Origin: Centroscyllium fabricii
Lineage: Eukaryota
DNA: 64,000 nt
NCBI GenBank assembly: GCA_051313645.2
Contig: JBNRSN020000011.1
Location: forward strand, 55,118,001 to 55,182,000
Direction of reading: 5' to 3'
Under the pieces are notes generated by a model. That model was not told the origin of the DNA and ran no database searches. It was given only the letters and a program-made list of their open reading frames with translations. This document shows, piece by piece, positions 512 through 25,792 of the stretch; position 1 is the stretch's first letter, and each line of letters opens with the position of its first letter. Both the position numbers and the translations under genes were made by a program.

Positions 512-696
512 TAAGGATCAGACGGGAGGCCAACACTAAGTTTCTACGGAGCTTCTTTATTCAGGTCTTATACACTGCCACGCCAAGCCTCAACTGAGGC
601 ATAGCTTAAGATGGCGCCGGCTCCCGCCACTCGGGCGTGACATCAGACGTAAGTCAAGCCCGTGCTGTCTTTACGCCAGTCACAGCTATCCTTACA
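512..696. mobile_element. Probable short solo LTR whose left end was split by the Harbinger insertion
   Basis: Starts TAAGGAT and ends ATCCTTACA, consistent with TG..CA termini and the short inverted repeat TGTAAGGAT/ATCCTTACA. TTTATT at about 556-561 is a poly(A) signal on the - strand. Confidence 0.4.
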
Positions 697-2899: not shown

Positions 2900-4567
2900 T
2901 ATTGGTCTTCTTAACAGCAATGTTTAAGCTTTGTCTGCACTCAGCTGTTTTGCATTAGAGGGAGCTTTGATTTGCCTATCATTATTAGTTACTATGCTGC
3001 CTGGAACTAACACTTTGGTTCTGCATCTCAGCCTCTGCAGTCTTAGAGCAAGTTATGCTCCTATTATAGGTTAGCTATACTTGTGTTCCTACAAAATAAC
3101 ATGAATTGTAGCAGTTCAGCTTTTTGCACCAGGTATTAGACCAATTGGAGATATTTTCAAACCATTTGGCTTTCCCATTGGCTGCAGTTGTAACTGAAGC
3201 AAGTTTGAAAAGACACCACTTAGTTCACTCGACCACCTTCGGGTTTCTAATATTAGCAGAGTTGGCAGCCGCATTGGCTTTTCTTCAATACCTGTATTAG
3301 AATTTCATCAGCAGCTGGGGACCAATGAAGAGTTGGACGTTTGGTACAAATGCATAGAGGGTAGCCTTGCCTGACTAGAGGGCGGGGGCTGTAGACTAGG
3401 CTGACCATACAACCCCATTTTCCAGGGACAGTCCCCGGATTAGTTACTGTGTCCCTGGGCAAATATCGTCTCCGGAAGTGTCCCTGGTTCAGGAAACTCA
3501 TCCCCCAATACAGCCATAGTCATTGGTCCACTGGTCGGCAGGAGTTGGGTTTTAACTTTATTTTGGGATAGACTGGAATTAAACACAAATTTTTTAGAAA
3601 CCCAGGGGGGTGCTTCTCGTCCTGTTCGTACCCAGTTTTGAGCTCAGGAACGGAATCCAGGAGCCGGTTGAATGGAGGCCATGATGACAGCTCCAACTTC
3701 CCACAATGCAGCTTGGTGGAGAATAGGCTCAAATGATAGCTCGAGCCACACTGCACTCTGGGAGATTGAGTCACCTGACCCCATATTTTGGCCAATAGTG
3801 ACTGGCCAGAGGGCGGAACCTTTAAAGTGCGTGGGAGAAGCCGAGGGTGCAGTGAGAGCTGGCGAGTGAGTGGATGTATTTTATCTCAGTTCAGTAAGGA
3901 GCATCGTGGGTTTTTTTAAGGAACAAGGCAAGCTCAATTCTCCCACCAGAAAGAGGATTCTGAAATCTTCTGAGACAGAGGATGTTTCACACATTATATG
4001 GAAAATCTCAGTCTGTTTGGAGCAGATTTAAAATTGAGAAATTAAAAGTTAGGATATTCGGGGATGACTATAGTTGGTTGGTACAGCACTATAGCCAGAA
4101 CAAACGCAAGATTCAGGATTTGGTGTACAGTGAAAATGGTGTTGTCTCTACGTGTATTCCACTAGCAGAAGTTCGTCTTGCCGGCCTTCTTGAAAAGCAT
4201 CCTGCCTACTTTGCTGTGCTCCCACACACAGTCCCTGCATTCAGTTTAGAAAATATGGTCACCATACAGTAGACCACTCTGATTCACACACTTTCATTGT
4301 AAATGCAGATATCTGCAACATAGGCAAAGTTCACTTCAGGGGTTAGCAGCCGCTCACTGGCGCAGAAGCATTTTAAATTATTTACTGGGTAATCCCTCAC
4401 CTTGATGAAGAAAGACTGCAATGGAAATCCATTCCTTGTGCACAGGCTGCAGTCACTTTGACATAGAAAAGTTGGTGATTTGTGTTTAGTACTGGGTAGA
4501 TTTGTAACAAGTTACAAATTTTCAACATTTCAGTACCGTCTTCATGTTAGTGTTGGTTCCTTTACAG

Positions 4568-4620
4568 CGGTGAATGTAACAGATCCTACACAATCAACAA
4601 ATGCTGATAGCACATCATCT
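4568..4620 (+). CDS. CRB3: Internal coding exon of a CRB3-like short ectodomain (xVNVTDPTQSTNADSTSS)
   Basis: Acceptor TTTACAG, donor GTAAGT, 53 nt (phase 1 to phase 0). Ser/Thr-rich with an N-glycosylation sequon (NVT). Splices in frame to 5931, like the short extracellular exon of CRB3. Confidence 0.7.
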
Positions 4621-5589
4621 GTAAGTTGATAGATTTAACTTGACCTAATGTTAATATAGTCTATGGTTTCAGTCTAACTCAGCTTTCAAGGTACAATTCA
4701 CAAAAGGATTTAGTAAAAACTGCTTCTGTAACACCGTACAGTTTCATCTTTGAAATCTCAATTGATCTTCCAATTATCACTAATAGGATACTGTTAGATT
4801 AATACCATGATCAATGCTGCAGCTATTAAGAATCCTTTTCAATTAAAATGAAGACAAATTAGTGCAATTATATGCATTATCCTGGTAATGCATCCATGTA
4901 GAAGTACCACTTGAGAGAACCCAACTGCAGTTTTGAAACCTTTCGTGCTTTTGTTGTGGAAATATTTCTGATATAGAAGGGCATGGTTTTCATAACAAGC
5001 ATTGAATTAGATACAAAAATTAATAATTCATTATGCATGAAATATTACATTAGGCTTTAATCTAGAACAAGTCCATTGTGTGATCAGTGTTACATAACTG
5101 TGGAAGCCTGGGTCAGGTGCATACAGATAAGGCAGTGGACTTGTAGTAGTCCAGCAGATCTAGTGATAAAACTGGACTCCATTGATGCTGACCTGGGCTC
5201 AAATTCTAACCTCAGTTGGCCTTGCATCTCAGCTAACCCCCAAATAAAGAGTTTCAGCAATTCTGAACCAGACCACCTTGTGGTTAGTGGAATGGCCCCA
5301 ATCCAGGGGAAGGGTCATATTGCAGCCTGGATAGCGGGCCCGTCAGCTGGTATGCAGTAGATGTTGTGCTGAAAGTGGACATGGGGCGAGTCCACATTAG
5401 ACCACCATCTCGCCACTCTCTCACGTAAGAAAACAACAGGAAGGCAGTTGAAATGAGGATGTAAAAGTGAATTTTTATTTTAAACAACAGGGAAGTTGTA
5501 TGTATTTATAAAAGATGCAAGTTTTCAGAAGTATACTTGTAGTTGGGGGCAGTGGAAACACATGACCTGGTGGCATTGTAGTCATTGAA

Positions 5590-5810
5590 TTATCCAGCTC
5601 AGAAGACGGCTATTCGGCCCAGCATGCCTGTGCCGGCTCTTTGAAAGAGCTCTCCAATTAATTTCACTCCCCTGCTCTTTCCCCATAGCCATGCAAATGT
5701 TTCCTTTTCAAGTATTTATCAAATTCCCTTTTGAAAGGTACTACTGAATCTGCTTCCACCACCCTTTCAGGCAATACATTCCAGATCATCATAATTTTCT
5801 GCGTAAAAAA
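5590..5810 (-). mobile_element. CR1 LINE 3' fragment
   Basis: ORF 5664-5861(-) contains WNVLPERVVEADSVVPFKREFDKYL...GYGERAGE, a CR1 ORF2 C-terminus. Confidence 0.75.
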
Positions 5811-5930
5811 TAAACAAATTGAAAAAAAATGTATTAAGTTGGACTTTTGACTCATAGGCACTGGCTAGATTAAAGTATGTCCAATTTGTGTGAGGCTTTC
5901 TAATAATAAAAATGCGAATTATTTTCACAG

Positions 5931-6152
5931 ACAAATCCGCCACCAAACAAAGTAAACATAGCAGCCATTGTGGCTCCCTGTGTGATTGGTGGGGTGATAG
6001 TTCTAGCTATCATTCTGACTTTTCTAATTCTAAAATTGCGTGAGAAACGTCAGACTGAAGGGAACTACAGCCCAAGCAACCAGGAGCAGACCGGATCTCG
6101 GATGGAAATGAACAATACCCTTAAACTACCGCCAGAAGAACGCCTTATCTGA
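5931..6152 (+). CDS. CRB3: CRB3-like terminal coding segment: TM helix, FERM-binding motif, PDZ-binding ERLI
   Basis: Acceptor TTTTCACAG|ACA, phase 0. Encodes [83 protein letters not shown] and [10 protein letters not shown] match remembered CRB3. Confidence 0.88.
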
Positions 6153-6395
6153 TATGTTCAGGCTCTGGGACGCACAAGACTTGGGGTGTTATGGTGGAAG
6201 GAGTAGGAGAAGTCAACAGATCCCAGGTATTCCCCGTGTTACTCAACAAGTTAGGAGGAAGAGAAACGTCACAAAGCTGTGCAACTCCAAGTGTGTGTGT
6301 GTGCACGTGTGTTTTCTTTAAACCACGGCAGCTTCAAAGCTAACCCTGCGTGGGTTATCCTTAAACTGTTTAACCGTTTTGACTCTTGTCGGCAG

Positions 6396-6611
6396 GATGT
6401 GGAAGCCTGGACCTCAGAGATTCTGCTGTATATTGGGTTGGTCACCGTGGCATTGCTGCTCATTTTCTTTCTAGTCCTCACTGCCTCCGTTGTGACCCTG
6501 AATAAAAGAGCAACACACGGGGCGTACAGCCCAAGCCGGCAGGAGAAGGAGGGATCGCGGGTGGAGATGTGGAACATGGTGCACCCACCGCAGGTGGAGA
6601 GACTTATCTGA
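6396..6611 (+). CDS. CRB1: CRB1-like terminal coding exon: TM helix, FERM-binding motif, ERLI
   Basis: Acceptor CTCTTGTCGGCAG|GAT, phase 0. Encodes [71 protein letters not shown], very close to remembered human CRB1 (VTVALLL...[31 protein letters not shown]...ERLI). CRB1 lies tail-to-tail with DENND1B in other vertebrates. Confidence 0.92.
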
Positions 6612-8959
6612 ATGAACCCTGAAGCTTGGCAAATCGTTTCTACGGTATGGTGGTATATCATTGCTGTATGTACAGGCCGAGGATGCCATCCAATTCAGCG
6701 TGCCACAAGGAATGCTTTAGCTAGGATTGAAAGTTTTTAAAAGTGCAGTTTAAATCAATTGATTTGCCAAGTTGTTGCCTGAACAGTCCGAAATACCATT
6801 AAAAAATGGCTCCATTTTAATTCTCCCTTTCCGCAAAACTGTCAACAGAAAATGGTTTACAATGCAAGTATGTAATTCACGTTCTGAATATAGAACACGC
6901 ACAAATACAGGAAGAAGATAAAGCATTCAAATACAGGTATACAGAGATGGATGGCCCTAGTTTGGAGGTTTCAGAAAAGGTCAAATGCCCATGTAACAAC
7001 TCCTCCTCTTCATTTAGGGAGCACTTTTAAATTAAAACAAGATTGTAGGCAATGGAGCTTAGAACTCCTCCCTGTGAAATATGGCAATAGAACCAATTGT
7101 TTATAAACATAGGAATAGTGCTAATAACTCTTATCCTTCCTTCTGTGATAGTGGCCTGGAGTTTGCGCTATGTTGCGATTTTTTTTTCAGTGCAAAAGAT
7201 CGCGGAATTTCAAGCGCAACTTATGTCCAGCGCAAATCAAGTTGCCGTGATCTTTTGCACTAGTTTAAAAAAACATCACGCTAGAAGCTGACAGATTTTA
7301 AGTTTGGCAATAGGCAAATGAGTTTGAGCAGAAACTTGGAGGGTGGGGGTGGGGGGGTGGGGGGCTGGGGGGAGAAACACGTCTCAAAACTAGCACAATT
7401 TTGGGCACAATTTGCACCCGGATTGCTGATTGCGCCCAAAGCAGAAACTCTACCCCAGTGTCTTTACTTCTGCACAATTCTAACCTTCAGTTTTGTAAAC
7501 TGCTGAATCTAAACAAACTACAAGTACCATTTCTTGCTCATTATCACAACAAAGCAATACACCGTAACCAATATATTTCAGCTTGACAAAATGGAGAAAG
7601 TATCAGTCTCTTTATGTATGACTGTCTTTTCTAATGTGACCCAGTTATGTCACAAAGTTTCTAACACGTGGCTAGTGGCAGTTCTGGTCACCACCAGGAC
7701 CTAGAGCGCCCACTTAACCCTTTCCTTCTTTGGGAGATTCTGCTCACCAAAACAAGTCAAACCCTTCCTTTTCTAATATAGACAGAGGTGAAACTCGGAT
7801 CGAGTTTAATCCCGAGCCACAATTTTAACCTAAACCGCCCGGCAGGAGCATTCCATGGAGCATAAATTCGGGTGGGGTGTGAAACAGGCGTCTGACACGA
7901 ACCCGCCCTTTTTCCGCCGGGCATCTTAGGTTAAAACCATGGCTCTAGTCTCTTAAAAGAGATGGGAAAACTTTTTGCTTAAATATTTTTACTAACAATA
8001 TTACAAAGTAACTATGCCCAGAGAAGGTATTTTTTGAATCTGATGAAATAAACTGTTCTAGTTACACAAACTATTTCACCAGTTTCCAACTAATTCTTTA
8101 AAAAAAATCAAAGCTCGGTTAATATATAGGACTAAAGCCTTTGTGAAGTGAAAGGTTTCTACCTGGAATGTTAATCCAGATTTTCTCTTTTCAGATGCTG
8201 TTTATTTCCAGCATTTTCTGTTCTTATTTCAGATTCCTAGTGTTTACCGTTGGTCATTCTTTTTAACTCTGAATTTTTACTGACACCAATTTTAACCTAT
8301 ATTGGGACAGATCTGAAGAAAAGTACAACTGATGATGGGGCAAAAGGGAAATTGGCGTCTAATGAATGGAATGAGGATAATTTTTGCCAGATTATGCATT
8401 TTAAACATGTATTTTCAAAATATCCTCTCACCACTTTACCTCTTTCTGTACTGAATATACATTTCAAATTAAATATATGTTCATAACACAAACAAAATAA
8501 ATATTTTCAGTAATCGACTAATGTTAACATTATACAGCATAATTGGGAAAATCAGCTAAAGAATGTTTATCAATTGCTAATGATTTTTAAAAATATTATT
8601 TTCTACTCTTATGCTGAAATGTTATTGGTGTTCTCAAAGGGTTAAAGGTCAACTGCCCACACTCAGATTTTTTCTGCAGCAGCAGCTATTGGCGATAGTA
8701 AATGCTAAGAACAAATGAACATGGAGCGTAGGATCAATGTATTAATTAGAGTGTATATATTTAGAGTGTATTATAGAGTCATTTATAGTCAGGATTAATT
8801 CCAAAGATGCGTGTCTGTGTAAGTTTGACTGCCATTACCTCAGAGTGAGAAGGCAACAATGCTGATGGTATAACACAGCTATTAAAACAAATAACAAGGC
8901 AAAACTAACTAATGATGTATAGCAGTCAAATATCAGATTTCCAACTTGTGCTAATTACA

Positions 8960-10120
8960 TAGAATTTTACAGCACAAAAACAGGTCATTCAACCCAAAAG
9001 GTCTGTGCCAGAGATTATGCTCCACACGAGCCTCCTCTCACTCTCCCTCATCTCACCCTATCGACATAGCCTTCTATTCCTTTCTCCCTCATGCACTTAT
9101 CTAGCTTTCCCTTAAATGTATCTATGCTATTCATCTCAACCACTCCATGTGGGAGCGAGTTCCACATTCTCACCACTCTCCAGAATTCCCTATTGGATTT
9201 GCTATTCCTATTTTATATTTATGACCCCTAGTTTTGGACAACCCCACAAGTGGAAACATTGGGGGGCAATTTTTCCGGAAGGGTGGGAATTGGTCGGGGC
9301 GGCTTCCTGTCCCGCCCGCCCAACCAGCTGGGAAGGCCATGCAATTTTAGGTTAATGAGGTCGTTAAAACCCCGTCGGCGGCAGCGGCAGGTAATTAGGT
9401 GAATCGGGTCGGGCTGCAGCGGAGCTGCGAGCACTTTGAGTGACAGTTCCAGCACTGGTTGTTGTCCGTTCCCATGGCAACACTCCAGTGTGACATCACG
9501 GTGGAGTGGAGCCAATGGGAAAGGCCAAGTGCTGGTGACTGGCAGGTGGGTGGACGGGCTCCGAATCGCTCACAGCTCGCACCAGCTGAGAGGCCATTGT
9601 GAGAACTGAGATTTCTCAGTTTCTGGTCTCAGCTGATATTGAAGGCAGCATGTCCTTCAGACCTTAAAGGAGAAAGTAATACATTCAGGAACTCACACAC
9701 CAGGTTATAGTGCAAAACTTATAAGCAGCGCTGTGCTCCCCCCAGCGGGGTTTAAGGTGGCGGGGTTAAGGTGGAAAACAGCGCAAAATGACTGAGGGCC
9801 CTTAAAATAGCATTAAAAATGGCAATTAAGGGCCCTTAACGAGGTGACAACCCATCCCCGCCGGTTGGCGGTGGGAAGGTTTCGGGGCGGGGAATCTGGG
9901 GGCGGGAAAATGAGAAAGCGGTGGGGCCCGCCGGTTCCGCTATTTTGCTGGCCCGGCTGCCGAAAACCCTGCCTCACGGGGACATGAAAATCCCCCCCAT
10001 TGTCTCTACGTCGACCCTATTAAACTCCTTCATAATTTTGAAGACCCCCATTAGGTCACCTCTCAGTCTTCTCTTTTCCAGAGAAAAGAGCCCCAGCCTG
10101 TTCAGTCTTTCCTGATGGTG
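8960..10120 (-). mobile_element. CR1 LINE 3' fragment split by a MITE
   Basis: ORF 9974-10177(-) has ERLNRLGLFSLEKRRLRGDL..VFKIMKEFNRVDVETM. The frame continues FPLVG across the MITE at 9261-9998. The CR1 3' tail lies at about 8960-9060. Confidence 0.75.
9261..9998. mobile_element. Harbinger-like MITE with 3-bp ATT TSD
   Basis: Termini GGGGGGCAATTTT / AAAATCCCCCCC, each flanked by ATT. Removing the element restores the CR1 frame (ETMFPLVG). Confidence 0.75.
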
Positions 10121-13100
10121 TGTCCTCTCAGTTCTTTTGGCTAACTTGACAATCTCACTCAAAGGGACCACAAGCATGGCTGGTGTGAGAACTTGAATTG
10201 TCCACCTGGAAACATCAGGTGAGGGGGTGAAGTGAGAGCACTCTACTGAGTTAGAGCCAGAGCAGAGGAAGCCTTACTCAGTATCTAGACTTTCTGTACG
10301 TGAGCTGGGAGAGTTTGATGTTGAAATTGGGAGATTAAAGTGAAAAAGTCTTCCATTTACAAGCTTTTAATGAACACAAAAGAAAAAAATTTATAAAGTT
10401 GAAATTTTAGAAGTATGCAGTGGACACACCTACATATTTGTTTGACATGAAGTCAAGAGGATTTAGGGTACTGCAAACTAAATGTAACATGGGCCACAAA
10501 GAAAATGAAACTAGACAGTGAGCAAGTCTTGATCCTGAATGACAGTACTCACAACAGCCATAAAATCAATGATGCCATCTATTTTGTCACAAGACTTTGT
10601 TCTTCAGATATAAATAGGCTAATTTAAAAGGTTATAATCTTGTGAATTAATCCAAAGAATTACCACATTTTTGGAGAGGACCATGTTCTTGACAAAATGA
10701 TTGGCAAACCTTTATTAATCAAAGGATGATGAAATTATGTAAATCATGTTGAAGTGCACCATCACGTCATTTGTGGGTGACATTGTGACCAAAATGATAT
10801 ACAACGTTTTGACTACTTGGCCTCTGCGAATAAAAAGGTATTTGGCAAATGTTTTCTAAAGATAGTGGAATAAAAACAGAAAATGCTGGAAACATTCAGG
10901 AGGTCAGGCAGCATCTGTGGAGAGATGGTTCTTTAACAAACAACTCTCTTGTGCTTTGTTTAAAATGAAACAGTTAAAATGTTTAGTTAAATTAACCAAT
11001 TCCTTTATTTACAAACAAGAAAAAATAGGAACTTAAAATTACGTTAATACATCCAAATTGTTGAATTCTATATCCTTGTGTTGGGGCAGTGTTCTCACTC
11101 CTAAAACTTTCTAAGTGTGTTAGAAAAGTGGGAAATGGCAAACCTGCTTGGATTCTGGTTGTAAGAGTATTTTAATAAATGTACCCAACTCATTGGAATA
11201 TCACTAAAAGCTTTTTGTCTTCTGTTGTGAGCGAAGTGTTTTCAATGTATTAAGTGAAAAAGAAAAATAGCTGTATGTATTAAGTGTATGATTCCTACTT
11301 ATAGCACATTACTTGTCAGTATTACAGAGGTCAACAGTTGCCTGTGACTAAATCTGGTCAATTTAGTGTAAACAATGGACAGAAGCAGTTCCCAAGGTGG
11401 GGCAGGAATAAATGAGTATACTGTTAAATCACCTTGATTTTGGATTAGTGATTGCAGACTGTTTGTTTTATATTTTTTAGCTGATCACGAATAGAAAGGC
11501 ATTTATTTCCACAGTGATTTTCTGAATGCATTGGATTGAAAACGTAGGCCCTGAAATGAAACTGAGGGATACTAGTGCATAAATGTTTAATGTACTAGTG
11601 TCTGAATGGTTAATGTCTATTTTAGGGGAGATATAAATCTATTAAAAAAAACTATACCTATGCTAAAATAACAGGAATTTCAGATAAGCAGACTTAAGTG
11701 TTCAAACACTAGGATTCCACTGCCATGGTTCAAAGGTAAAATATATATGTTTACTTTTTGTTGGGTTTTGTAGTTATATGGCACCTTACTGGAAGATTGA
11801 GATTGTTTTAAGTTTGGTAGTAGCTGTGCTGTTCATTGTCAATTAGTCACATTGTTCAGAAATATTTCAGTCAAGTTAGGATTTCATTAGCCTGTGGTTA
11901 TATAATCTGTATAGAAAATGAGAACAGTGGGCAACTCTTTTCAATCTTTGGCAACAATTTACCAAAGCTGCAATACTGTAAAACAAGTCATTTCTTGTGG
12001 CTGTTGTTCACCAGACTGACATGTCTTTGTATTTTTACATGCTGTTCCATCAAAACTGCTCTACTGACTGTACTTTGATAGTAATATTGGTGTCATTTCT
12101 TCATACATCTGGGCATAGTTTGTCACTATATTTTAACTAGTCATGCAAAGTACGCAATTGAAATCAAAATCCACCATTTCCCCCAAAATGGGTGAACTTG
12201 ATGAACATTATATTTTAAATAGAAATTTATACTAATATATTTTAAACCATTCATGAATCAGTCAGATTGAAAAATGTTCAAACCCAGTGTGATTTTAGGC
12301 ACCAGGCTCCTTACTCAGAGCCTATGATGCAGGGATAACATTTCACTATTCATTCACAAACATCAATCTTAGGGCAAGTCATCTGAGAGAATAGTTCAGC
12401 AGCGGATGGGTTGAAGGAGTATGAAAACATATGTTGAGAAAATATTAATTATTTGGAAAACATTTCTACTGTGAATTTAACTGATACTTTGTGAAGTCAT
12501 GGTCAGAATTAGCAGGGTGATAAATTCTATGTTTAAATGTTCATTTCTATTATACAGTACTTATAAATCTGCCATGATGAGTGCTTTCACTCTAGCAGAG
12601 AAAAGGGGAATATGAAGAGAAACAAGATTTATCTGTTCATGACAGCCAGCTTCTTTCTTGGGGTTTCATCTTTTTGCAGCCACAAGGTAACACACAAGTG
12701 TTTTTTTCTGTAGTATTGTAGGGGTTGTATGGCAGTTTCTGCCCTGGGGTTACATGTTTGAACAGCACCAGCTATGGGACATAATCTTGAAGATAGATCT
12801 ACTGAAATATTGAATTAGGTGCCTTGTGTCATTTCATTGTTTTTGCCTAGTTTTCAGATAGAAATCTTCCATTGTTTATTCATTATTTGTTTATGGGATG
12901 TGGGTGTTGCTGCCCCTCCCTAATTGCTCGAGAAGGTGGTGGTGAGCTGCCACCTTGAACCGCTGCAGTCCGTGTGGTGAAGGTACTCCCACAGTGCTGT
13001 TAGGGATGGCGCTCCAGGATTTTGACCCAGCGACGATATACTAAGTCAGGATGGTGTGTAACTTGGAGGTGGTGATGTTCCCATGCGCCTGCTGCCCTTG

Positions 13101-14121
13101 AACTCCTTGTGTTTGTTAGAAAACATTCCTTGTTAGTAGCCCAAATATGTAAATCAGAAAAAGCTAGCTTCACTGACAGTATGAATTAAAGTCCTAACTC
13201 TTGGTCCTTTAAATTGAAATATTAAAGTGACATCAACTCTGTTGTTACTACCAATGACAGTTTGCATTGGGACCATCAGAATTATAAGTCCAAAACTGAT
13301 TTATTTTCAGTTTTACAAAAAGCAAATTCTTAATCTAGCCTGGTTGGGGGCAGGGATTCAGGAATATCCAAATCCCAACAATTTCCTTCAAGCATGCATC
13401 ATTCCAATCCCCCTCTCCCTTGTACGTTTTTGTACCTTGCTAGCAATTCAGAATGTTACCTGGAAGAATTTCTACAAACAAATCATTTGTTACCTAACTA
13501 TACAAAATAGATAGAGCATCAGAAACATTAAACAGAAAACTGATCATTTTAATCATGTGTGTCAATGGAAATTTCACGTCCTCTTCTGAAATAAAAAGGT
13601 TGCATCTTATAAGTCAAAACTAAAATTTGCATTAACTCTTAAGAACTGAAAAATTGGGCTTTCAAAATGCACTTTTCCGTCCTGGTTCAGCATGTTCTCT
13701 TAAATGATTATAAAGTAGTGAGAAGTATACAGTACAACTGAAACATCTTATTTTACATAATTCAGATTAAAATAAATCAAATGTTTTAGCATTTTAACAT
13801 CCTTCAGTGCTTGAAGGGTTAATAACAAATTGTTTTTAACTATTTTGTGCTATTGTAATTGTGGGTCTGTAAATATCTTGAGTTATGAAAGTGAATTGAT
13901 TGAAAACCTTTATGTACAATGTGATCAATTGACACCAAATGGCTACAGATTTTCAGTTCTGCAGAGTGCCAATTCTCGACATTTTTTTTGCAAATGTGTA
14001 TATTTTAGAATGTTGTTTCAACTTTGTACTTGATTTTAGAAATGAGATATATATATTACTTTTTAAATGTAGATATTTGGTGTTTAGACCAATTAATATG
14101 AATGTATATATTGTGGAGCAA

Positions 14122-14127
14122 AATAAA
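14122..14127 (+). promoter_or_regulatory. Candidate distal poly(A) signal of the Crumbs locus
   Basis: AATAAA ends an AU/UGUA-rich stretch (about 13800-14120) typical of vertebrate 3'UTR ends, followed by a GT/T-rich tract. Confidence 0.4.
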
Positions 14128-14908
14128 CTGTTTCTCCAGTGAATGTTCTTGCATTGCTCATTGATTTATTTGCAAGTATCTTTCATGTTTATAATGAGTA
14201 ACTCCAAGAGGAAGTGTTTGAACTAACTGGCTCACACTTTAACAGCCTAATGCTATAAGTGGTTAAGTGCCTAAATCACAGCTTACTTTTCACAAAAAAT
14301 GTTAAATTGTACAACTATTTTATTCAGTGTCTATGACTGGTATTTTCATTATGCTAAGCATCATTTTTGGTAACAAACAGTATCTCTTAGCAATGGCTGT
14401 GTGTTATTTCTCCTTCATATGAAAGACTTGGGAGTTGAGACAAAGGAATTAAAGGATAACTACAGGTCCCTGTTTAAGCAAAAGCAAAATTCCAGTGGTA
14501 GCAAAATTCAATTAAATTCCATCGCTTATTGTGCACCATCTCATTAGTGTGGTTGTTTTTCGAGTTTGTTTTATTACATCTTTACTCAAAGCACTCCATG
14601 CTCACTTATTCAGAACATGCAGATCCAGAGCTGCTGGGTGAGGAAATGGCTTCCATTCGAACTTGTCCTGGATAAAATGGTTCAGGTAGTACATGGATGA
14701 GTTATCTTTTCCAATCCAAGATATGGAGCAGAGTCTCCAAACCCACTTTAGAATAAAGTAAACACTCAACAGGAAGCTATATAAGCATATGAGGACAAAG
14801 GGAATAGAAGATTATGCTGACAGAGTTAGATGAGGATGGGAGGAGGCTTAAGTGGAGCATAAACATCAACACAGACTGGTTGGGCCGAATGGCCTATCAC
14901 TTTAGGCA

Positions 14909-16795
14909 TGAGGAGCCTCAAATCAGAACCGACAGCTAGTTCTAACGAAAGACTTTTATTTACAAAGAACTGAACCTAGTCTGCGATGAGTCCGCCCGGA
15001 ATGAGTCAGGTGGGCGGAGCATTCTCCTTTATACTCATACCCAGAGGCGGGGTCAGCCGGTCCAGGTCCTTACAGAAAGGTACAGATTTATTAACACAAA
15101 CTATATACAATAATCCAGAAAGGTACAGATATATTAACACAAACTATATACAATAATAGCACAGTGTGAACCACACCAAATGGTTTATCACATTCACCCC
15201 TTCCTTAAAAAAAGTCCCGCGGGGCGAATATCAGCACTGTGTTATCAGTCTTTGAGGAGGTCGAACAGTCCGATTAGACCTGCGAGGCAGTGGCGGTTCT
15301 CGCGAATAGGCGATAGTCACAATCGGAAAAGGCGCTGACGGGGCTCCCGACGTGAACAGGGACTCCACCGGTGGAAGAGGTACCTCAGGCGCAGGAAGAT
15401 CTGGTGGAGGTGTAGCAGCCGCCGGAAGAGTAGGCTGAGCAACGTGATGAGCTCCGTCGTGCATTGTGGGTGATGAGGGCCCAGATGTAGTGTGCACAGG
15501 TGAATGAAAAGACGGCCCCTGTTGTGAAAATGTGACCTGGGAGGGCAAGGGCTCTGCCAACGACTCTAAGTGAACGTCTCCAGCGGGCGCAAGGTCTCTA
15601 ATCGAGACGGTATCCTCACGCCCGTCTGGGTACTCCACGTAAGCATACTGAGGGTTGGCATGCAGCAGGTGCACACGTTCAACAAGAGGGTCTGTCTTGT
15701 GTCCACGGACGTGCCTAAGCAGAACCGGCCCTGGGTTGGTAAGCCACGTCGGCAGAGACGTCCCCGAAGTCGATTTCCTGGGGAAAGAGAAAAGTTTCTC
15801 GTGAGGCTGTCCAGATGGCGCCGTGGCTGCCACGGTCGCCGTCGAGGGCGTCGAACGCGAGTCCCAAGGCCCAGGGGAAACCGTGTGGGAGCCGTGCCCA
15901 GTGTACGAATCCAGGCTTCGGAGGGCCCCATCCACCGCATTGGAAAGCTTCACCGCCTGATTCAGGGACAAATTATCCTGCTCGAGCAGGCGGGTGTGAG
16001 CTGGGGCCGATCTGATTCCTGCCACGTAGGCATCGCGGACGAGGAGGTCCATGTGCTCCTGGGCGTTAACAGGGGCACATCCGCAGCGCAGAGCGAGAGC
16101 TTGAAGAGCCTCCAGGTACTCCTCATTCGACTCACCATGCTGTTGCCTCCGCGTGGCGAGTAGATGGCGAGCGTAGACGGCGTTGACTGGTTGGAGGTAT
16201 CGAGCCCTCAGCAGCTCCAACGCTGCATCGTAGTCAGTGGCATTCTTAATGATAGAATATACCCTGCCACTCACGCAAGAGACCAGGACTCGTCTCCTGT
16301 GCGCATCGCTGACTCCGGTCACTACCAGGAACGATTCGAAACAGCTCAGCCAGTGCTCAAAATCGTTCGACGCGTTCGGTGCCTGGGGGTTGAGGTCGAG
16401 AATTTTTGGTTTAAGGATAGTTTTCCAGTTTTCTGATGCTGCTGGCTGGTGGCTCTGTTGTTGGTCATCATCCTGCAGGCTCATTGTAAAAATTATTTGT
16501 AAATAAAATTGAGGAGCCTCAAATCAGAACCGACAGCTAGTTCTAACGAAAGGCTTTTATTTACAAAGAACTGAACCAAGTCTGCGATGAGTCCGCCCGG
16601 AATGAGAGTCAGGTGGGCGGAGCATTCTCCTTTATACTCATACCCAGAGGTGGGGTCAGCCGGTCCAGGTCCTTACAGAAAGGTACAGATTTATTAACAC
16701 AAACTATATACAATAATCCAGAAAGGTACAGATATATTAATACAAACTATATACAATAATAGCACAGTGTGAACCACACCAAATGGTTCATCACA
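14909..16795 (-). mobile_element. Internally deleted (non-autonomous) Ty3/Gypsy LTR retrotransposon
   Basis: LTRs 14909-15192 and 16510-16795 (TG...CA; about 5 substitutions plus a 2-bp indel by eye). 5-bp TSD AGGCA at 14904-14908 and 16796-16800. PPT AAGGAAGGGGTGAA on the - strand at about 15193-15206. TATAAA and AATAAA in each LTR on the - strand. Confidence 0.93.
15231..16484 (-). CDS. 417-aa ORF: Gypsy Gag fused in frame to an integrase C-terminal tail
   Basis: N-terminal part is Gag-like (FEHWLSCFESF, YARHLLATRRQQHGESNEEYL, LVRDAYVAGI). C-terminal part resembles an integrase tail (WLTNPGPVLLR..HKTDPLVERVHLLHANPQYAYVEYPDGREDTVSIRDLAP ... PRRSNRTVRPPQRL). No protease, RT, RNase H or DDE core seen. 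Confidence 0.8.
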   Translation of the reverse strand: MSLQDDDQQQSHQPAASENWKTILKPKILDLNPQAPNASNDFEHWLSCFESFLVVTGVSDAHRRRVLVSCVSGRVYSIIKNATDYDAALELLRARYLQPVNAVYARHLLATRRQQHGESNEEYLEALQALALRCGCAPVNAQEHMDLLVRDAYVAGIRSAPAHTRLLEQDNLSLNQAVKLSNAVDGALRSLDSYTGHGSHTVSPGPWDSRSTPSTATVAATAPSGQPHEKLFSFPRKSTSGTSLPTWLTNPGPVLLRHVRGHKTDPLVERVHLLHANPQYAYVEYPDGREDTVSIRDLAPAGDVHLESLAEPLPSQVTFSQQGPSFHSPVHTTSGPSSPTMHDGAHHVAQPTLPAAATPPPDLPAPEVPLPPVESLFTSGAPSAPFPIVTIAYSREPPLPRRSNRTVRPPQRLITQC

Positions 16796-17761
16796 AGGCA
16801 AAACTACCAGCGGTTCCAAATTAAGGGTCAAACTCACCAATAGTCTGGGTGACAATTAAAACTGGAGATGAGCATTATGGTACTGCAAATTAGAAGAAAC
16901 CACACAAACTGCTGGGAGGGTTTGCAATGAAACGTGGCAATTTCTATTTCCTACTATCGTGACACATTCGATTGTTTTGGAAAACTCCCATATCAATCCA
17001 GGACACTTCAGTTAAACTGAGCACTAACTAACCTGATTTTCTAGCAGGACTCTGAAAAGCAAATAAAGCAGGGAGGCATAAATTTAAGGATGAATCCAAG
17101 ACGATGTTACGAGGAGAGATGCTCAGAGCTGAAGTAGTGCTGCAGAAAAAGAGCGGGAACACAATTGAAAGCTTAAACATAGGGACGGGGTAGGCCATTC
17201 AACCCCTTGAGCTTATCCTGCCATTCAATTAGATCATGGCTGATCTGTATAAATGATGATTAGCATAAAGTGCATATTTGTAAATAAGCATTTTGATTGG
17301 CAACATGAGCACACAAGTAGAATACATTGGCTCAATATTGAAAAGATCAAGATTTGAATTTTGTCCACATGGAACAGAAATGCAGCAAATATATTTGATG
17401 CTGTGTCAATTTACTCCATTAAAAGAAACTGGATAGATATTCACTCGGGAACAGGCATAAAGGTTACAAGAATAACCAGGGTGATTTGATCAAATATTCC
17501 ATAGGTCATCTACTATTAGTGCATATAAATTACACTTCAGCTGCCCAATGAGACTGAAAGCTGCCAAGCAGTACCCAGTTTACATGGTGAAATTTTAATT
17601 CTGCTGCATATAGATGTGCACAAATGTCCTCTTGTCGCAGGTCAATGTTTAATGTTCCGACAGTGTGGAATGTCAATGGGTAAGTCAGAGATTCCCCTAG
17701 CCTCAACATGCTCAGGAATCTTTCCTGGGTTAATTGATGCTTCAACAACCCCATTTGCGAA

Positions 17762-17975
17762 ATCATAGAAACTTTACAGTGCGGATAAAGGCCATTCGGC
17801 CATCCAGTCCGCACCGGCCCAGGAAACTCCTCACTATACTAACCCCATTTGCCCGCACCTGGCCCATAACCCTGTATGTTACGGTCCTTCATGTGCTGGT
17901 CCAAATATTTTTTAAATGTTGCGATGGTTTCTGCCTCCACCACCCTTACAGGCAGGGAGTTCCACACTTCCACCA
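17762..17975 (-). mobile_element. CR1 LINE 3' fragment
   Basis: ORF 17839-18063(-) has VWNSLPVRVVEAETIATFKKYLDQHM..GYGP, followed by a CR1-like tail. Confidence 0.7.
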
Positions 17976-20029
17976 CCAAAATGTTGAGAATCTTCACTAT
18001 TACTAATTGTTTGACTTTTTGGATTAAAAGAAAACCTTGCCGTTTTGTAGACCTTACATCCAAACTGAGGCCTGGCTAGTATCAGCACATTATGATGCTG
18101 TTCTAGTTGTGATCTTGAAAGAAATGACATTTTGGCCCCATTTCTCCAGTGCCCTTGACCCACTCTGTCATAGATTGGGCCAATTTCATTTAGTGCCAAT
18201 CTCTTTGGTACAAATGTCAGTTCTCAAGATATTCACTCAGGTTCAGTTGCACCAGTTACTTCCATAAGAGACCTAATTTCCTGTGATTTCAAGAGTACAT
18301 TTGCTACCCAATATCTAATTTAAAAAAGTGAGAGATCCAGGGCCAGAATACAAAGACTCCTCATTTGTGCACGGGATACTGTGATCGTACATCTGCCATC
18401 GTGTGCATTTCTTCCATCTTTTGGAAGGCAGACAAAAAAATCTGGTTTCATTAACGTGCAATATACAAATGAACTGAATAGTTTTCACAGCGACAATTTC
18501 CCATCAATCATATCATGCAAAATAATGCAATTTGCAAATTCTTATGGGCATAACTCAAGTCAGCAATCTTTCAAATGTCTGGTACTCACTGCAGTCGGCC
18601 TTTTCCCAGGGAGGAAGACAAAACCTTGATCTCTGACCTCCTTTAGCTCTTCACATCAAGGATTGGATCGGCAAACTGCCAATCAAAGTTACATCTTAAA
18701 TGAGAAACCACCCCTTGATGTGGAAGCCATGGCAACTAGATTGTCTGTTTAACAACGCGCCTTGCTGAGCACAATCAATGGAAACCATTCTTGCATTCAA
18801 GTGCAAATATGTTTGGAAAGTATTAGACAATCCACATTGTCTCAAATTGATATCGTATATGAGAATACACAATTTTGAAAAGGCTGGTATTCTAACTAAT
18901 TTGTCCTAAACAATATCCCAGATAGCTTGTCTCTCCTGGAGTTAACCCTTTATGAACTGAATCTAACTTCATACGAACTTCATTACATAACTTAAACCAA
19001 AATCCATTCTGGACCGATAGATAAAAGTCTCAAAACAGCAGTCAGAATTGCTTTCAGCTAGTGAGCACAGGAACAGAGACAGAAGTTTGATATCTTTAGT
19101 TCCCTGAAGTGTCGCGTGCAAAAAGAAAAAAATTGTAAAGCCAACACTTACTCTTCCCACTATCGTAAATATGTTTGCCGCACATCTTTGTTTGAATTTG
19201 TGTTTATTCTGATATATGGGGGAAAACAAGAACTACTTGGACAAATCATCAGAACTGCCGCTATGTACTAGTCTGCAGCCAATGGGAGAAAGAGGAAGAC
19301 AATGTATGTGGAGGTTACTATTCTTTGCATATATTGAAAAGAAACAGGTTAAACAAGACATCTCAGTGAAATACTGAAACTTTATTGTTTGGCAAAGGCA
19401 AAGCACAGCTCTGCAAAGTCTGAAGAATAACTTTATTCAGCCAATTTTGTACAATTTCCCATATTATACAGCAGCTTGGACAACCATCAAAAGAAGATTA
19501 AACAAAGACAGTGTTACCCGTACGTATCCGTTCTGGTTGAAACGGTCACTGGGTTTCATTTTAAATAAATATATTCTGAATTGGTGGAGTGCTCATACAA
19601 CTGTCCTAAAAAGTTTTATTAAAAATTTAATATACCCTGCAACAGCTTAATCTGGCAGTTGGTATATCAAAACTTGGCCGATTTGTATATGCACAGCTAC
19701 ACAGCTAAAAATCTAATTTTCTTGCAGTACATTTTTGAATCACAAAGGAAAGTTATTCCACTGATAGGATAGGATGCTGTGCGATGTCGCTTTTATTGTT
19801 TCAATCTGGATAAAAATTGATGACTTCTACAAATAAGCTTCCCTAAGGAATGGTGAAAATAAAATTGGCACAAACAGCAGTTCTACAGATGATTAGTTCG
19901 CAACAATGACTTGGTGCTTTAAAAGCCAAATTACTGGATTTTCCAGTTGACTCTTAAAGTATACAACTTGTTTGTTTTTTGTTTAAGAAAAAGCCAAACT
20001 CAGTTGGGATATACAGTTAAATGGCATTA

Positions 20030-20706
20030 CAGGTTGAGCACCGTTAATCTGGCACGGTCGGGACCAGACCTGTGCCGGAAAAGTGAAAATTCCGAACGAT
20101 TGAAGCTTCGGCGAGCACATGCGCAGACCATTCAAAATGGCCACCGCGCAAGGCCAGCGGCCATTTTGAGTGATATGCCCATGCGCTCGCCAAAGCATCA
20201 TTCGTTCGGGACCATTCAAAATGGCCGCCGCAATAGGTCGATGGCCATTTTGAATGGTCCGAGCATGCGCTCATCCTTCAGGAAGGCCTGGGATCGTTCG
20301 GGACCATTCAAAATGGCTGCCGCAAAAGGCCGGCAGCCATTTTGAATGGTCTGCGCATGCGCTCATCGTTCGGGAATGTTCTCGGCAAGGTTCTCTTCAC
20401 AGCCTGTGGAGGGAGCGGGGTAACTCGACCGCAAAAGTACTTGTAAGTATTTAATTGGTTCCCCTTCTGCACCTTGCTATTTATTACTTGCTAATTTTTG
20501 CACTGGAATTTATTTTATTGAAATTGCTGATAGGTAGCTTTCATTTCCACTTGATATGCATTGATTTTTACTTGTCATTATTTTATTCGGGCATGCGCAG
20601 CCAAGCACGGCGGCCATTTTGCACATGCGCCGACCACTTGGGAAATCTGTGCCGGATGTCTGAAGCTGCCGGTTTTTCGGGTACCAGATTAACGGTGCTC
20701 AACCTG
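20030..20706. mobile_element. Tc1/mariner-type MITE, CAGGTTGAGCACCG family
   Basis: TIRs CAGGTTGAGCACCGTTAATCTGG / CCAGATTAACGGTGCTCAACCTG with TA TSD. Internal repeats of CAAAATGGCC and GCATGCGC. Confidence 0.88.
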
Positions 20707-23619
20707 TACTATAGAACAGAACCTAAGCAATGAGCTGGTTGATATTTACAAAGATTGGACAGTTTAAGACAACTTAAAAGTATGAGTTAACAGTTGAACT
20801 GCTTGGTCTCTGGTGGTTCATGGACAATTGTGTTAACTAGATGCTTGAATGAACAATTAAATAAACATTTGCATAAATTAGACATGCAAGTAATTTACAG
20901 GATGAACTGCACATGTATATTTTTAAGCGTCAGACAATCATAGCAATGAGTAACATTTACTTTTTAAAATGAACATGTAAATGGAACAAATGCTTAAGAC
21001 ATAGGCTGTTCTATCAGTTTACCAACATATTGCATATAGAAAAAGTGGACTCTAAATTATGGAAGTGATACAAACTATGGAACTTTGTAAATCAGAGCGG
21101 TTGCAAGAATATGGTGGACTACCACTCAAATAAGACATTAAAGACTGAGATGGAAAAAGAAAAACAATGAGAAAATGAGAAAACTAATTCCACAGTGATC
21201 TTTATTTACAATGACCTCTTGAGCTAGTCACTTAACTTTGCAGTCGACATGGAGCAAGTTTTAATGGTTAACACAACTTATATGCACTTTAGGTGCTTCT
21301 CTGTACCCTAGATTAAAATTTATTAAAAAAAACTTGGTGCAACAATCTAACGTGAAAGCAACATCTGGAATACAAACAATTTGTAAATAGAATTCATATT
21401 GCACAGAATTATTCTAAAAAAGATAGCATGCCTTCTGGGCGCTGAAAGAGGCTGCATTTTAAATTATTTTCAATATACAAACCAAAGACAACAATAAGAG
21501 TAAGTTAATTTGACAAGAGAGCATTTAATACAAAAACTCAGATCAACTTGAGTTTTTGGGAAGTCTGAGGTATATCAAATAGGATTATCCTGCTGATTTT
21601 CTGTTTTGATATACAGCCTGTGTAATGTTACAGCAATATTGCACCTTGATACATCACTGCTCATGCCATCTTTTCATATACATTACACTTTTAGTTTCTG
21701 CTCAAGTTGTTCCAGTTCCCAAAATAAAATTCAGTACCATCATTTTCATTAAGGCACGTGTTCTAGCCTTTGCCGCAGCGATGTATTAGGTATTTTAAAT
21801 GTCTAAAAAAATTAGAAATATTTATAATATATGTATCTCTGATGAACTAACTAATGGAGTCCTTTAACAACATCCAGTTATGAGGGAAAAAAATAGGACA
21901 GAGGAACACGGGAGCAAAAGTATACCACATGTCCCCAGTAACAAAGAGTGCAAGACGGTGCCTTATTTAAAGTAATCATCAAGTAACCAAATGTTATCTA
22001 CAGATTTAAAAGTATTAAACATTAGTGTAGCACAAGTTACTGGAATCATCTGGTTTGTGTAGATGTCGTCATCTATCCTAGTATTCATTTACCCTGTTTG
22101 TACCCATTAAAGTACCATTAATGAAACAGGAGTACCAACAGAATGTGCTTCTTCCCCCTTATATCCCAGTGTTGGTTGCCATTTACACTACACCAGTCCT
22201 ATTACACAATCACATTCTAAAAACACAGCAATATTTCACGAAACATTTACAGCATTTGTGCAATACAAAAAAACACTTTACACCAAGAGCACATAGAAAA
22301 TTGATAACACTTATATCCATATCAAAACGTTAACAATTGTATTTTATCGTAGGCCAGAACTCCTGTGAGGTCTTAAGAAAGCCGATTTCATGTCTTGTAA
22401 AAACTGTTTCGTTCCTAAAAGATCACCGAGAGGTTCAAGTGAGCCATCATTAATGGTGTCGAGGGAAAACAAAAACAATTCAACTTATTTCGGGAAGACA
22501 TGGATTGAATACTCATTGGTACTAACAGATTGCTGATTAAATAAAATGCAGCATTATCTCCATAGGAGATTCTTTTTCTCCCTTTATTAACCACAGTTTG
22601 CATCGTCATTCCTGATAATTATTGCCTAATGAACTGATTTCAAGCATTTTCAGGTTTATACTATGTAAGCACTAAAGTATCTTACGCTGTGACACTTTTA
22701 AACAGTTGTATGAAGTGATTTAGTAAGATGCTACATGATGATTTCAGAGGACCACGATTTCCGTAATTTTTAAGGCAGTACCTTTGATCATTTGGCTTTA
22801 ATTTGCTGCATATTTCCTTTATAGACATGGGTAAAACATAGATAACAGGAAAACACAGATCATGTTAAAACACAGATGAAATGTAAATGGAGTGTTTAAA
22901 TAATTCAGAGTATCCAGCTTGTAGATTTATTATAATGGAACAGGAAGGGTTGAGGAGGGTTTGAAATGTAAGGAATTGCAGACAATAATGACCACTGTTC
23001 CCTCCTCAAGTGCTTGTAAACTCAGACGATCCCACCTGCTAATTCTCATCCACCCTTCATTGTACAAGGTTATATATATTTTATATATAGCATGCAACAA
23101 TTTTACTATCACAAAGCATTTGCCTCGTTAGTCTGATTTGGTTGGAACAATGCAGGGAAATCTCACTGACCTTGAAAGAAAGACTCAGCCTCCCATTGTG
23201 ATGTAGAAACATAAGTTTGTTCTTTGTCCCTCAGAGTTAAAATTTATCTTTTTCACCTGAATAGAACTTTAAATGAAATGGTTTCTGTTGTGTACATACA
23301 TACCCGATTGCTGAATTATCAATACACTACTTCCATTATAGGCAACAACTTGTGCTCAACTGTTTAGCCCAAGTGTATAAATCAGAAGTGATTTTAATTG
23401 TCTGTTTTAGCAGTGTGGGTGTTAAAAGTTTAAATTTGAAAGAAAATCTGTATTTGATTTTGCATAAATCAGTAAAGCAGTGCATTTTTACTTCTTCTGC
23501 ACTTAGAAATGTTCAAGAACTCCTCCCTTTCCTGCAGTCTAATACTCAATCTTTCAATTCTTAAATAATTCTCTGAATTTGCCCCAGCTTAAAACACTGC
23601 TACACTTTCACACTTTGTT

Positions 23620-24168
23620 CTAAGTGTTGGCAGTGGAAGCACCAACACTGGAAATAGTGTGACCGGTTTCAATTCTGGAGCATAAACAGTCGATCTCTTG
23701 GAGTAGGTCTATTTCACCTGTGGGTTCTATCAATTCAGCCTCAACAGCTTCTTTCTCCCAAGGGATTAAAACCGATGGGTATTTTGATGCATTTTGACAC
23801 TGCTCATCGTAGGTACCGTCTCCACTGGTTAGTGTTCGCGTTGGCTCCTTTAGTTTGGCTGAAATTGTTTTCTTCTGCTTCGATTCTTCACTGGAGGCAA
23901 GGGTTGCCACTGAAGCTTTAAAAGATGAGTCACTATTGAGTTTAGGAAAATTTGTCAACTCTTCAACAAACACACAGGAGTTTTCAGAAGATGACATTTC
24001 AAAGGTAACCGGACATTCAGAAAAATAATAAAATGATTTCCTTGGAGATGGGGGAAGGGGCTTTCTGTGGACAACAGTATCATCTTGTCCCAGGTGCCAA
24101 CTCAGATGATCACCATACCCTACACCGAGTTCAGCCAGGTTTCCCTCACTAGGAGTATTGGACTTGTT
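23620..24168 (-). CDS. DENND1B: DENND1B last coding exon
   Basis: Acceptor TTTTGTTAG|AAC. Encodes NKSNTPSEGNLAELGVGYGDHLSWHLGQDDTVVHRKPLPPSPRK...PSVLIPWEKE...EIDLLQEIDCLC...*, matching the remembered DENND1B C-terminus (NKSNAPSENNLA..WNLGQDD..LPPSPRK..FVPWEKE..IGLLHEVVSLC). Confidence 0.9.
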   Translation of the reverse strand, partial: NKSNTPSEGNLAELGVGYGDHLSWHLGQDDTVVHRKPLPPSPRKSFYYFSECPVTFEMSSSENSCVFVEELTNFPKLNSDSSFKASVATLASSEESKQKKTISAKLKEPTRTLTSGDGTYDEQCQNASKYPSVLIPWEKEAVEAELIEPTGEIDLLQEIDCLCSRIETGHTISSVGASTANT

Positions 24169-24295
24169 CTAACAAAATAAGAAGAAACACGTTAAGTATG
24201 AGATCTCCCAAAACTTTAATGGTAAAAAAAAAAGAGCAATTAATTGTCAAATATGAAAGGCAGTTAAACTCTACATTAAATCTCCTATACAAAAT

Positions 24296-25166
24296 GGGCC
24301 AGAAATTCCGATCGATCCCACGATTAGCACCCGCAGGAATGGAGCCTAATTCCCCGTGCTAGCTATCGCACGGGGAATGCGCACGAATCCGGGCTTTCCG
24401 ATGCTGAGGCAGAAGAGGCCTCAGCATGGAACGCACAAAAGAATTGCACCCAAAAATCCCGATGTTTTTGGGTGTGATTCTGTGCGTTCATCTGTGGGCA
24501 AATGGGCTTGGAGCTGCACGGGAAAAAAGCAGTCGTAAGCTGTGCGTTGGTGAGAGCAGTGCGTTCTTAAACAAGGTAAGTGACATTTTTACCTTTAATT
24601 TTAAGTTTTATCAATTTTTTAGAGTAATGTGGCCAGATCGCTATCATTTAATTTGGCTGTTAAAGTTTTTTTTTTTTTTAATTAAAAATCCGAATTTCAA
24701 TTGTTATACACACTGCTTTCTATTCCAAATCGCTTATTTTTAAATTTTAAGTTCTGAAATTTTAAACTATTTCCTTAATTTAAAAAACTAAGAAGAAATT
24801 GCTGAGACTTACCTCCGTTGAAAATCTGCCCTGGCCGCCGTTGCTCACTGCCGAGTCTGTGGGTGCAGCAGTGGGCGTGGTCCTAATCGAGGCCTCACGT
24901 CCCTGCTCCCTACGAAGTCCGACTGTGAAGCAGGGGGCGTTTTTTATTTAAATTAGGGATCTGTGGGCGGAGCATCACTCCAACGCACGCACGACGGCAG
25001 CGCATATATAGCGCTGCTAGCGTGGCTGGACTGCCACGCAGCCCAGGAACGGGGCGGAGCCAACAGGAAGTTTTGGCCGTTAGAGATCACAGATTATGGT
25101 GCGGTGCGATAGGTGTCCGCATGGTCCAAGCACCCGCACAAAACGGCAGACTGGAATTTCTGGGCC
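24296..25166. mobile_element. Harbinger-like MITE (GGGCCAGAAATT termini)
   Basis: Termini GGGCCAGAAATTCC / GGAATTTCTGGGCC, each flanked by AAT. GC-rich arms with an AT-rich centre. Confidence 0.8.
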
Positions 25167-25575
25167 AATAGCTATTTCTTTTATCATCTTCCGTTATTTA
25201 ACATTTTCAAAATCATCAAGATTTAATGAGGCAACAATTACTTCTGACTTTTCTGCACTTTTTCTTTCCAAATTAGCTCTCAACAGCATTGTATTGGGAC
25301 AGGATGAGAGCCACAACACAGATGCCTCCAGGGATTACATTAGTGGCATTCTTTGGTCAACCAACTAAGGTGTATGCATAAAAAGATTAAGAAACAACAT
25401 AGTTGATCCCACAAACAAACCGACTTAGACTAAGAAACTTCAGTGTCTAGGGAAAGCAGCCTCAATCGAGACGATTTTTTTGAATTCAAGTAGCTAGTGA
25501 ACTTGAGTCACAACAGCTTTGATGTTTTAACTCGTGCGCTATCATGATCCTAGAACTTTAATACCGAGTACTCAC

Positions 25576-25792
25576 CCCAGCTTTATAACTGATATCATCC
25601 ATTGATTTGAAGAAATCCAGGCTCTTTGCACCACACAGCTTTCCTTGCTCTGAACTATGTGTACTGAGGGTATCAAGGATCTCTCCCAACAAGTCCATTT
25701 GGCCTGGAGATTGTGACTCCAGTTCCATCTGTTCAGAATCATCACTGTCATCAATATAGGCACATACTTCTCCACTGTCGTCCGATGATACC
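25576..25792 (-). CDS. DENND1B: DENND1B penultimate coding exon
   Basis: AG acceptor and GTGAGT donor; 217 nt (phase 2 to 0). Encodes VSSDDSGEVCAYIDDSDDS...QMDLLGEILDTLSTHSSEQGKLCGAKSLDFFKSMDDISYKAG, including the clathrin-box-like DLL motif of DENND1B. Confidence 0.93.

Follow-up and report, generated by a model that had tools for sequence, protein, structure and literature searches.

Three mammalian and five zebrafish Crumbs genes, as well as the CRB1-A, -B and -C isoforms, have been described (PMC11129452, PMC4359734, PMC7335077, PMC5968619), and Crumbs tails are defined by a FERM-binding motif (RxxxGxYxPS) and the sequence ERLI, with atypical protein kinase C (aPKC) sites of the form TxGTY (both PMC5968619). 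The portions of these papers available to us do not present two tail exons in tandem or a short Crumbs unit nested within a long one, which is the layout reported here for the shark Centroscyllium fabricii (genome of 7.2 Gb). The window, i.e., the whole stretch of 64,000 nucleotides that was analysed (G000:C113:55118001-55182000), holds two alternative tail exons of CRB1, hereafter A and B, and part of a short, CRB3-like unit that lies in the last CRB1 intron and is spliced to A. We propose, with a probability of roughly 0.75, that this locus keeps the ancestral vertebrate Crumbs layout and that CRB3 arose from such a layout through the loss of parts after genome duplication. A sequence-only reading of the window had suggested that the pre-duplication locus held both a long and a nested short Crumbs; this core idea holds at the strength just given, and its scope is widened by an A-then-B tandem at CRB2 that had not been foreseen.

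Canonical vertebrate CRB1 (the CRB1-A isoform in the naming of PMC7335077, a name distinct from our tail exon A) has in common with this locus an EGF/laminin-G ectodomain encoded upstream, the B tail and a tail-to-tail DENND1 neighbour, but, as presented in the accessible parts of PMC7335077 and PMC11129452, it has neither a CRB2/CRB3-type tail exon before B nor a short transcript from the last intron. CRB3 (Crb3a), located beside DENND1C, shares with the nested unit three coding exons, phases 1 and 0, a 53-nt Ser/Thr exon (in this genome) and an A-type tail with the same ten-residue ending; in contrast, the nested unit sits within the last intron of CRB1 and shares its last exon with the long form, the true CRB3 being a separate gene on another contig (C446). 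CRB2 of sharks, amphibians and sauropsids has the same A-then-B tandem after its last EGF exon, with B in the 3' untranslated region (UTR) of A transcripts, whereas no short unit was detected in its 32-kb last intron. Finally, the isoforms of one gene are partitioned between genome-duplication copies in teleost mitfa/mitfb, a case that resembles ours in that ancestral isoforms became separate genes after duplication; unlike there, the unpartitioned state of Crumbs persists in cis beside a sister copy that is already partitioned, and the separation goes back to the genome duplications of early vertebrates.

The Crumbs features of the window (positions counted from its first letter) are:

4568..4620, plus strand: 53-nt Ser/Thr-rich ectodomain exon of the short CRB3-like transcript, with phase 1 acceptor, phase 0 donor and an N-glycosylation sequon
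5931..6152, plus strand: tail exon A (CRB2/CRB3-type, with transmembrane helix, FERM motif and EERLI), which ends the short form and, as an alternative, long CRB1
6153..6395, plus strand: 3' UTR of A-type transcripts, presumably an intron when acceptor B is used (contig of run X1 unspliced from 5934 to 7200)
6396..6611, plus strand: tail exon B (transmembrane helix, FERM motif, VERLI; CRB1-type tail) with phase-0 acceptor, as in database isoforms X2 of four sharks
6612..7200, plus strand: shared 3' UTR, reaching at least 7200 (contigs of runs X1 and X3)

The host gene is CRB1, as its last EGF exon (G000:C113:55041634-55041771, 83% identical to catshark CRB1) lies 82 kb upstream of exon A and the penultimate EGF exon (79% identical) 88 kb upstream. 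Exons A and B are 243 bases apart on the plus strand, both have phase-0 acceptors, and both fit the Crumbs family, with a FERM motif, a C-terminal ERLI, a single transmembrane helix and a cytoplasmic tail of <40 residues. Exon A encodes a short stalk, the helix, the motif RxxxGxYxPS and the terminal ERLI; its peptide is 92-97% identical to shark proteins and matches the Drosophila Crumbs tail (PDB 4WSI/4YL8) at E 2e-9, and the pattern R...G.Y.PS..ERLI* occurs twice in the window and in none of 50 shuffles. The first Thr of the aPKC sites is retained at this locus, the second being replaced by Asn in A and by Ala in B. The residue before ERLI is Glu in A tails (EERLI) and another residue in B tails, a difference that may tune the binding of PDZ partners.

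A convincing signal exon was not found within positions 1-4560 of the window; it lies 31.8 kb upstream of the window (G000:C113:55086211-55086292), inside the last CRB1 intron, and has an ATG, hydrophobic codons, a phase-1 donor and a match to the N-terminus of database short forms (the signal peptide being called from this hydrophobic first exon and the database N-termini). Signal exon, 53-nt exon and A form a single open frame of 118 codons, separated by introns of 36 kb and 1.3 kb, and the 118-amino acid (aa) product, with a putative signal peptide, a short sequon-bearing ectodomain free of EGF and laminin-G domains and an A-type tail, has a CRB3-like architecture. Splicing was read from contigs of sequencing runs of related organisms, presumed to be RNA (four contig sets, with two studies supplying the joint): the joint from 4620 to 5931, bounded by GT..AG, is present in runs X2 and X3, and run X1 joins to 5934 with three letters between, for three of the four contig sets overall (run X5 had no coverage of exon A). 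The X1 contig runs unspliced through to 7200, which places B within the 3' UTR of the A transcript. As a separate observation, a high-copy short repeat at 5608-5794, 140 bases before acceptor A, draws most of the mapped contigs.

Short proteins of 118-121 aa with an exon-A tail are found in seven other species, which include two rays and a chimaera (Hemiscyllium, Rhincodon, Carcharodon, Mustelus, Narcine, Mobula and Callorhinchus), and in Hemiscyllium and Mustelus the short form and CRB1 are recorded on contigs of equal size. The proposal that a CRB3-like unit is present here, and that this lineage keeps long and short forms in cis, is borne out, and a CRB3-like short unit is found in sharks, rays and a chimaera. 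The origins that would have spoken against an ancestral unit were looked for as well. A retrocopy or a single-species insertion is ruled out by the introns, the splicing and the presence in the seven other species, a single A8 run near the unit being intronic and no other poly(A) tract being present there; and in the tree the CRB3 clade has the nested A as its sister, not as a recent copy inside it, although a topology test is not decisive on this last point (p 0.22, below).

Long CRB1 models that end in A or in B exist for Scyliorhinus canicula, Cetorhinus, two Chiloscyllium species and Callorhinchus (among 32 cluster members listed, 36 read). Hence, while 5931-6152 had been taken as part of the nested unit, and does serve as the last exon of the short form, long CRB1 can end in it too; since A ends both proteins, we regard an isoform of the CRB1 locus with an internal start as the best description of the nested unit. 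From its motifs we infer that the short form would act like CRB3, with apical localisation and PALS1/FERM binding in epithelia.

The genome as a whole holds five tail exons, with A and B at CRB1 (C113), A and B at CRB2 (C822) and A alone on C446, and searches with A and with B return the identical five. The C446 locus is CRB3 proper, a three-exon short gene followed tail-to-tail by DENND1-type exons, so that the second CRB3 beside another DENND1 that the sequence-only reading had proposed to look for does exist. Its middle exon (G000:C446:11699622-11699674) is 53 nt long and has the same phases as the 4568-4620 exon of the nested unit, and cartilaginous-fish counterparts of this gene make up 13 of the 19 matches of a protein search. 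No long-Crumbs exon, B tail or read-through tail was found in 210 kb around the gene, and thus the CRB1-like tail remnants that had been sought after this CRB3 are absent from that stretch. Because a CRB3 reduced to the short form is present beside a second DENND1 in a shark, the long form must have been lost there before the split of sharks and bony fishes, and this loss is not the bony-vertebrate event that the earlier reading supposed.

At CRB2, the last EGF exon is followed by A, then by B 1.2 kb further on, and by a DENND1-type exon on the opposite strand. The EGF exon is joined to A in all four mapped runs, with B carried in the 3' UTR. The B exon is present in chimaera CRB2; in Heterodontus, Xenopus laevis and axolotl the CRB2 models X1 and X2 end in A and in B, respectively, and a sparrow model carries A then B in order. 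With the CRB2 B tail as query, a search returned 75 of the 117 candidate proteins (56 birds, 11 frogs, 3 turtles, 2 salamanders, 2 lizards and 1 priapulid), and all 74 vertebrate ones have an ectodomain nearer to shark CRB2 than to CRB1 together with a B-type end; this search missed known CRB1 B-tail proteins, and the lack of mammals and ray-finned fish among its matches is accordingly no evidence of loss. The presence of the same A-then-B tandem at CRB2 means that the tandem is older than the CRB1/CRB2 split. We take canonical mammalian CRB1 to have B and CRB2 to have A, in which case those two tails are old tandem paralogues and not duplication sisters.

Phylogenetic analysis of the tails (63 tails that we selected from the available proteins) places all B tails, of CRB1 and CRB2 alike, in one clade (support 100/99), and CRB2-A as sister to a clade of CRB1-A and CRB3 (95/91). 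Within the latter, the CRB3 clade, which contains the hagfish sequence and a long-branched tarpon unit, excludes CRB1-A (98/89). The approximately unbiased (AU) test rejects A plus B as a clade for CRB1 (p 6.3e-5) and for CRB2 (p 0.012). The nested A and the CRB3 tail exon are 64% identical and use the same codon at 16 of 40 shared residues; BLASTN of their flanks gave only short or high-copy matches away from the exons, probably repeat-derived, and a half-and-half division between A and B is not clear in the invertebrate consensus. Human chromosomes 1 and 19 are sisters within this paralogon, and the CRB1-with-CRB3 pairing fits that relation. Likewise, cyclostomes split off between the two early genome duplications, with which the short A-type Crumbs of hagfish (125 aa) fits.

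Taken as a mechanism, the last EGF exon, which ends in phase 0, would select acceptor A (5931) or acceptor B (6396), with competition between the acceptors as the putative switch, and A-type messages would retain B in the 3' UTR, as was seen for the short form at CRB1 and for long CRB2. Transcription starting afresh within the 82-kb intron, at a presumed promoter, would yield signal exon, 53-nt exon and A, i.e., the 118-aa CRB3-like protein. Historically, the tail exon would have been duplicated in tandem before the CRB1/CRB2 split, and the short unit would already have been present in the CRB1/CRB3 ancestor; CRB1's sister copy would then have become CRB3 by shedding its long ectodomain and B, before the split of sharks and bony fishes, while the other copy (CRB1) would have retained all parts in cartilaginous fishes. 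Later, lineage-wise losses would have removed A at CRB1 and B at CRB2.

Several results weigh against this scenario, and they are best considered together with the alternatives that they favour. The alignment has only 66 columns, and the AU test fails to reject a clade of CRB1-A with cartilaginous-fish CRB3 (p 0.22), which also share a twelve-residue stretch; the long-branched tarpon A unit is placed within the CRB3 clade, and a tree that groups it with CRB1-A comes close to being rejected (p 0.073). Between the nested unit and CRB3, the signal and 53-nt exons agree in architecture but have little sequence in common, and no short unit was found in the 32-kb last intron of CRB2, a weak negative from a micro-exon scan that gave three open phase 1-to-0 candidates, all lacking a sequon (at CRB1 and CRB3 the scan did find the true exon, among seven and two candidates, respectively). 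It is therefore conceivable, although in our view unlikely, that A in its place is ancestral while the signal and 53-nt exons were recruited or copied separately into the CRB1 intron, or that CRB1-A and CRB3 were homogenised at an early point in cartilaginous-fish history, so that CRB3 would not descend from a CRB1-type short isoform. Against such separate recruitment, the best tree has CRB1-A outside all CRB3, the 53-nt exons agree in size and phases, codons are shared to the extent given above, and the hagfish has a short form; further, in a tarpon model a hydrophobic N-terminus and a Ser/Thr stretch precede the A unit, which is itself followed by a CRB1-type B tail.

The transcript evidence, which comes from presumed RNA of related organisms, has to be weighed as well: a spliced joint into B is not listed at CRB1 in the mapped contigs and occurs in none of the four mapped runs at CRB2, and no joint from long CRB1 to A was readable, so that the use of B at both genes and of A by long CRB1 rests on database models. 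If B, seen only as 3' UTR in these contigs, were a relic and A belonged to the nested gene only, both long-form joints would be annotation artefacts, a reading to which 6 residue-altering changes among the 11 listed for CRB2-B in run X1 might also point. We consider this improbable, because five of those six fall in the stalk or membrane part, CRB2-B keeps its open frame, acceptor, FERM motif and ERLI from chimaera to birds, and both CRB1 isoforms are modelled in five cartilaginous fishes. More remote still is the idea of independent last-exon duplications in CRB1 and in CRB2, followed by convergence on A-like and B-like tails; short tails under constraint can come to resemble each other, and the two CRB1 tails do share codons at 13 of 20 shared residues, the top of ten pairs, but the rejection of both gene-specific clades, the single B clade and the identical order and phase of A and B at the two loci have already largely refuted it. 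Hence, we favor the hypothesis that the tandem and the short isoform are ancestral and that CRB3 was derived from them.

A broader view, which we regard as an even bet, is that one ancestral gene had three selectable C-termini (read-through, A and B) and an intronic short isoform; that CRB3 is that isoform, freed by genome duplication; that of the pre-duplication tandem pair one tail survived in mammalian CRB1 and the other in mammalian CRB2; that an isoform with a CRB1-type tail is still produced from CRB2 in frogs, reptiles and birds; and that teleost crb3b is what remains of the nested unit of a crb1 locus and not a teleost duplicate of crb3a. As for the third C-terminus, the frame stays open at CRB1 when the last EGF exon is read beyond its donor, and it gives a hydrophobic end (G000:C113:55041772-55041880, also modelled in Mustelus, P0013), and a corresponding C-terminus is recognisable at CRB2 (G000:C822:416296695-416296810), interrupted by a TAA stop. 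This read-through end presumably resembles the tail of the CRB1-B isoform; if so, that tail too would be older than the CRB1/CRB2 split.

Among bony fishes, where models were taken from the best 150 of 436 profile matches, a diverged A-type unit is linked to a CRB1-type B tail in the tarpon and eel models, and in a mudskipper model, annotated as 'crumbs homolog 3b', an A-type membrane segment is joined to the end of a CRB1-type B tail (these joins are gene predictions; P0131, P0054 and P0170). They put an A-type unit immediately before B in three teleosts. Such models speak against the earlier assumption that the short form was lost beside DENND1B in bony vertebrates generally, and the mudskipper one suggests that teleost crb3b may be the nested unit of the crb1 locus. 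In a search of a protein-cluster atlas the tarpon unit had CRB3-named clusters as its top matches; the C-terminus of this unit reads ERLL and its FERM motif carries PR instead of PS, PR being also present in eel and Polypterus. Pairwise scores for a bony-fish CRB1-A orthologue versus CRB3 did not place the short proteins of Polypterus, Polyodon and Latimeria, since the controls overlapped. Latimeria crb3a (P0066) and Polypterus crumbs 3-like (P0074/P0284) are recorded on contigs of 165-172 Mb and shark crb3a on contigs of <=45 Mb; either of the former could be a CRB1-nested unit. Outside the vertebrates, a short Crumbs-like model of 84 aa in Ciona (P0189) groups weakly with vertebrate A tails (83/90, long branch) and is a possible pre-vertebrate short form.

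These results offer a specific and testable account of how CRB3, the main epithelial Crumbs of mammals, originated, and redraw the tail homology between the retinal-disease genes CRB1 and CRB2, for which trees based on tails mix exon paralogy with gene orthology. They also predict an overlooked isoform of CRB2 with a CRB1-type tail in Xenopus, axolotl and birds, which bears on the redundancy of CRB1 and CRB2 in non-mammalian models. In the database, the nested short form of Rhincodon is named crumbs homolog 3a, and CRUM1 or crumbs homolog 1-like is a frequent name for CRB2 proteins with a B tail; the tail misleads the automatic naming of Crumbs proteins, which explains such confused names. Single isoforms are already in public annotation, and the evolutionary synthesis was not found in print: our search of the open literature found no paper on tandem Crumbs tails or on an origin of CRB3 from a nested isoform, and supplementary tree figures (e.g., Fig. 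S3 of PMC4359734) may bear on its novelty.

All three Crumbs loci are tail-to-tail with a DENND1-type exon. In the window, the two C-terminal exons of this neighbour are:

23620..24168, minus strand: last coding exon of the neighbouring, tail-to-tail DENND1 gene (DENND1B, judging by adjacency and presumed motifs)
25576..25792, minus strand: penultimate coding exon of the DENND1 neighbour

The three DENND1 motifs that had been quoted for this neighbour are present on the minus strand (25651-25698, 24037-24057 and 23749-23763) in these exons, and a DENND1-type DENN exon lies 85 kb past the window on their strand; Pfam gave no family matching the two C-terminal exons. DENND1 is thus confirmed, and the finer call of DENND1B, rather than 1A or 1C, rests on the adjacency to CRB1 and on C-terminal motifs that we take to be those of DENND1B, as the single DENN exon tested did not separate 1A from 1B for C113 or C446 and leaned to 1A for C822. 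Between CRB1 and DENND1, an open stretch of 430 codons (15234-16523, minus strand) carries pieces resembling gag and integrase of a long terminal repeat retroelement (weak PNMA match, E 8e-4), and the DENND1 introns contain further mobile elements, i.e., a MADF-domain frame (44452-45021, plus strand), a DDE_Tnp_4 transposase fragment (32188-32475, minus strand) and a reverse transcriptase of the long interspersed nuclear element type (60593-61783, plus strand).

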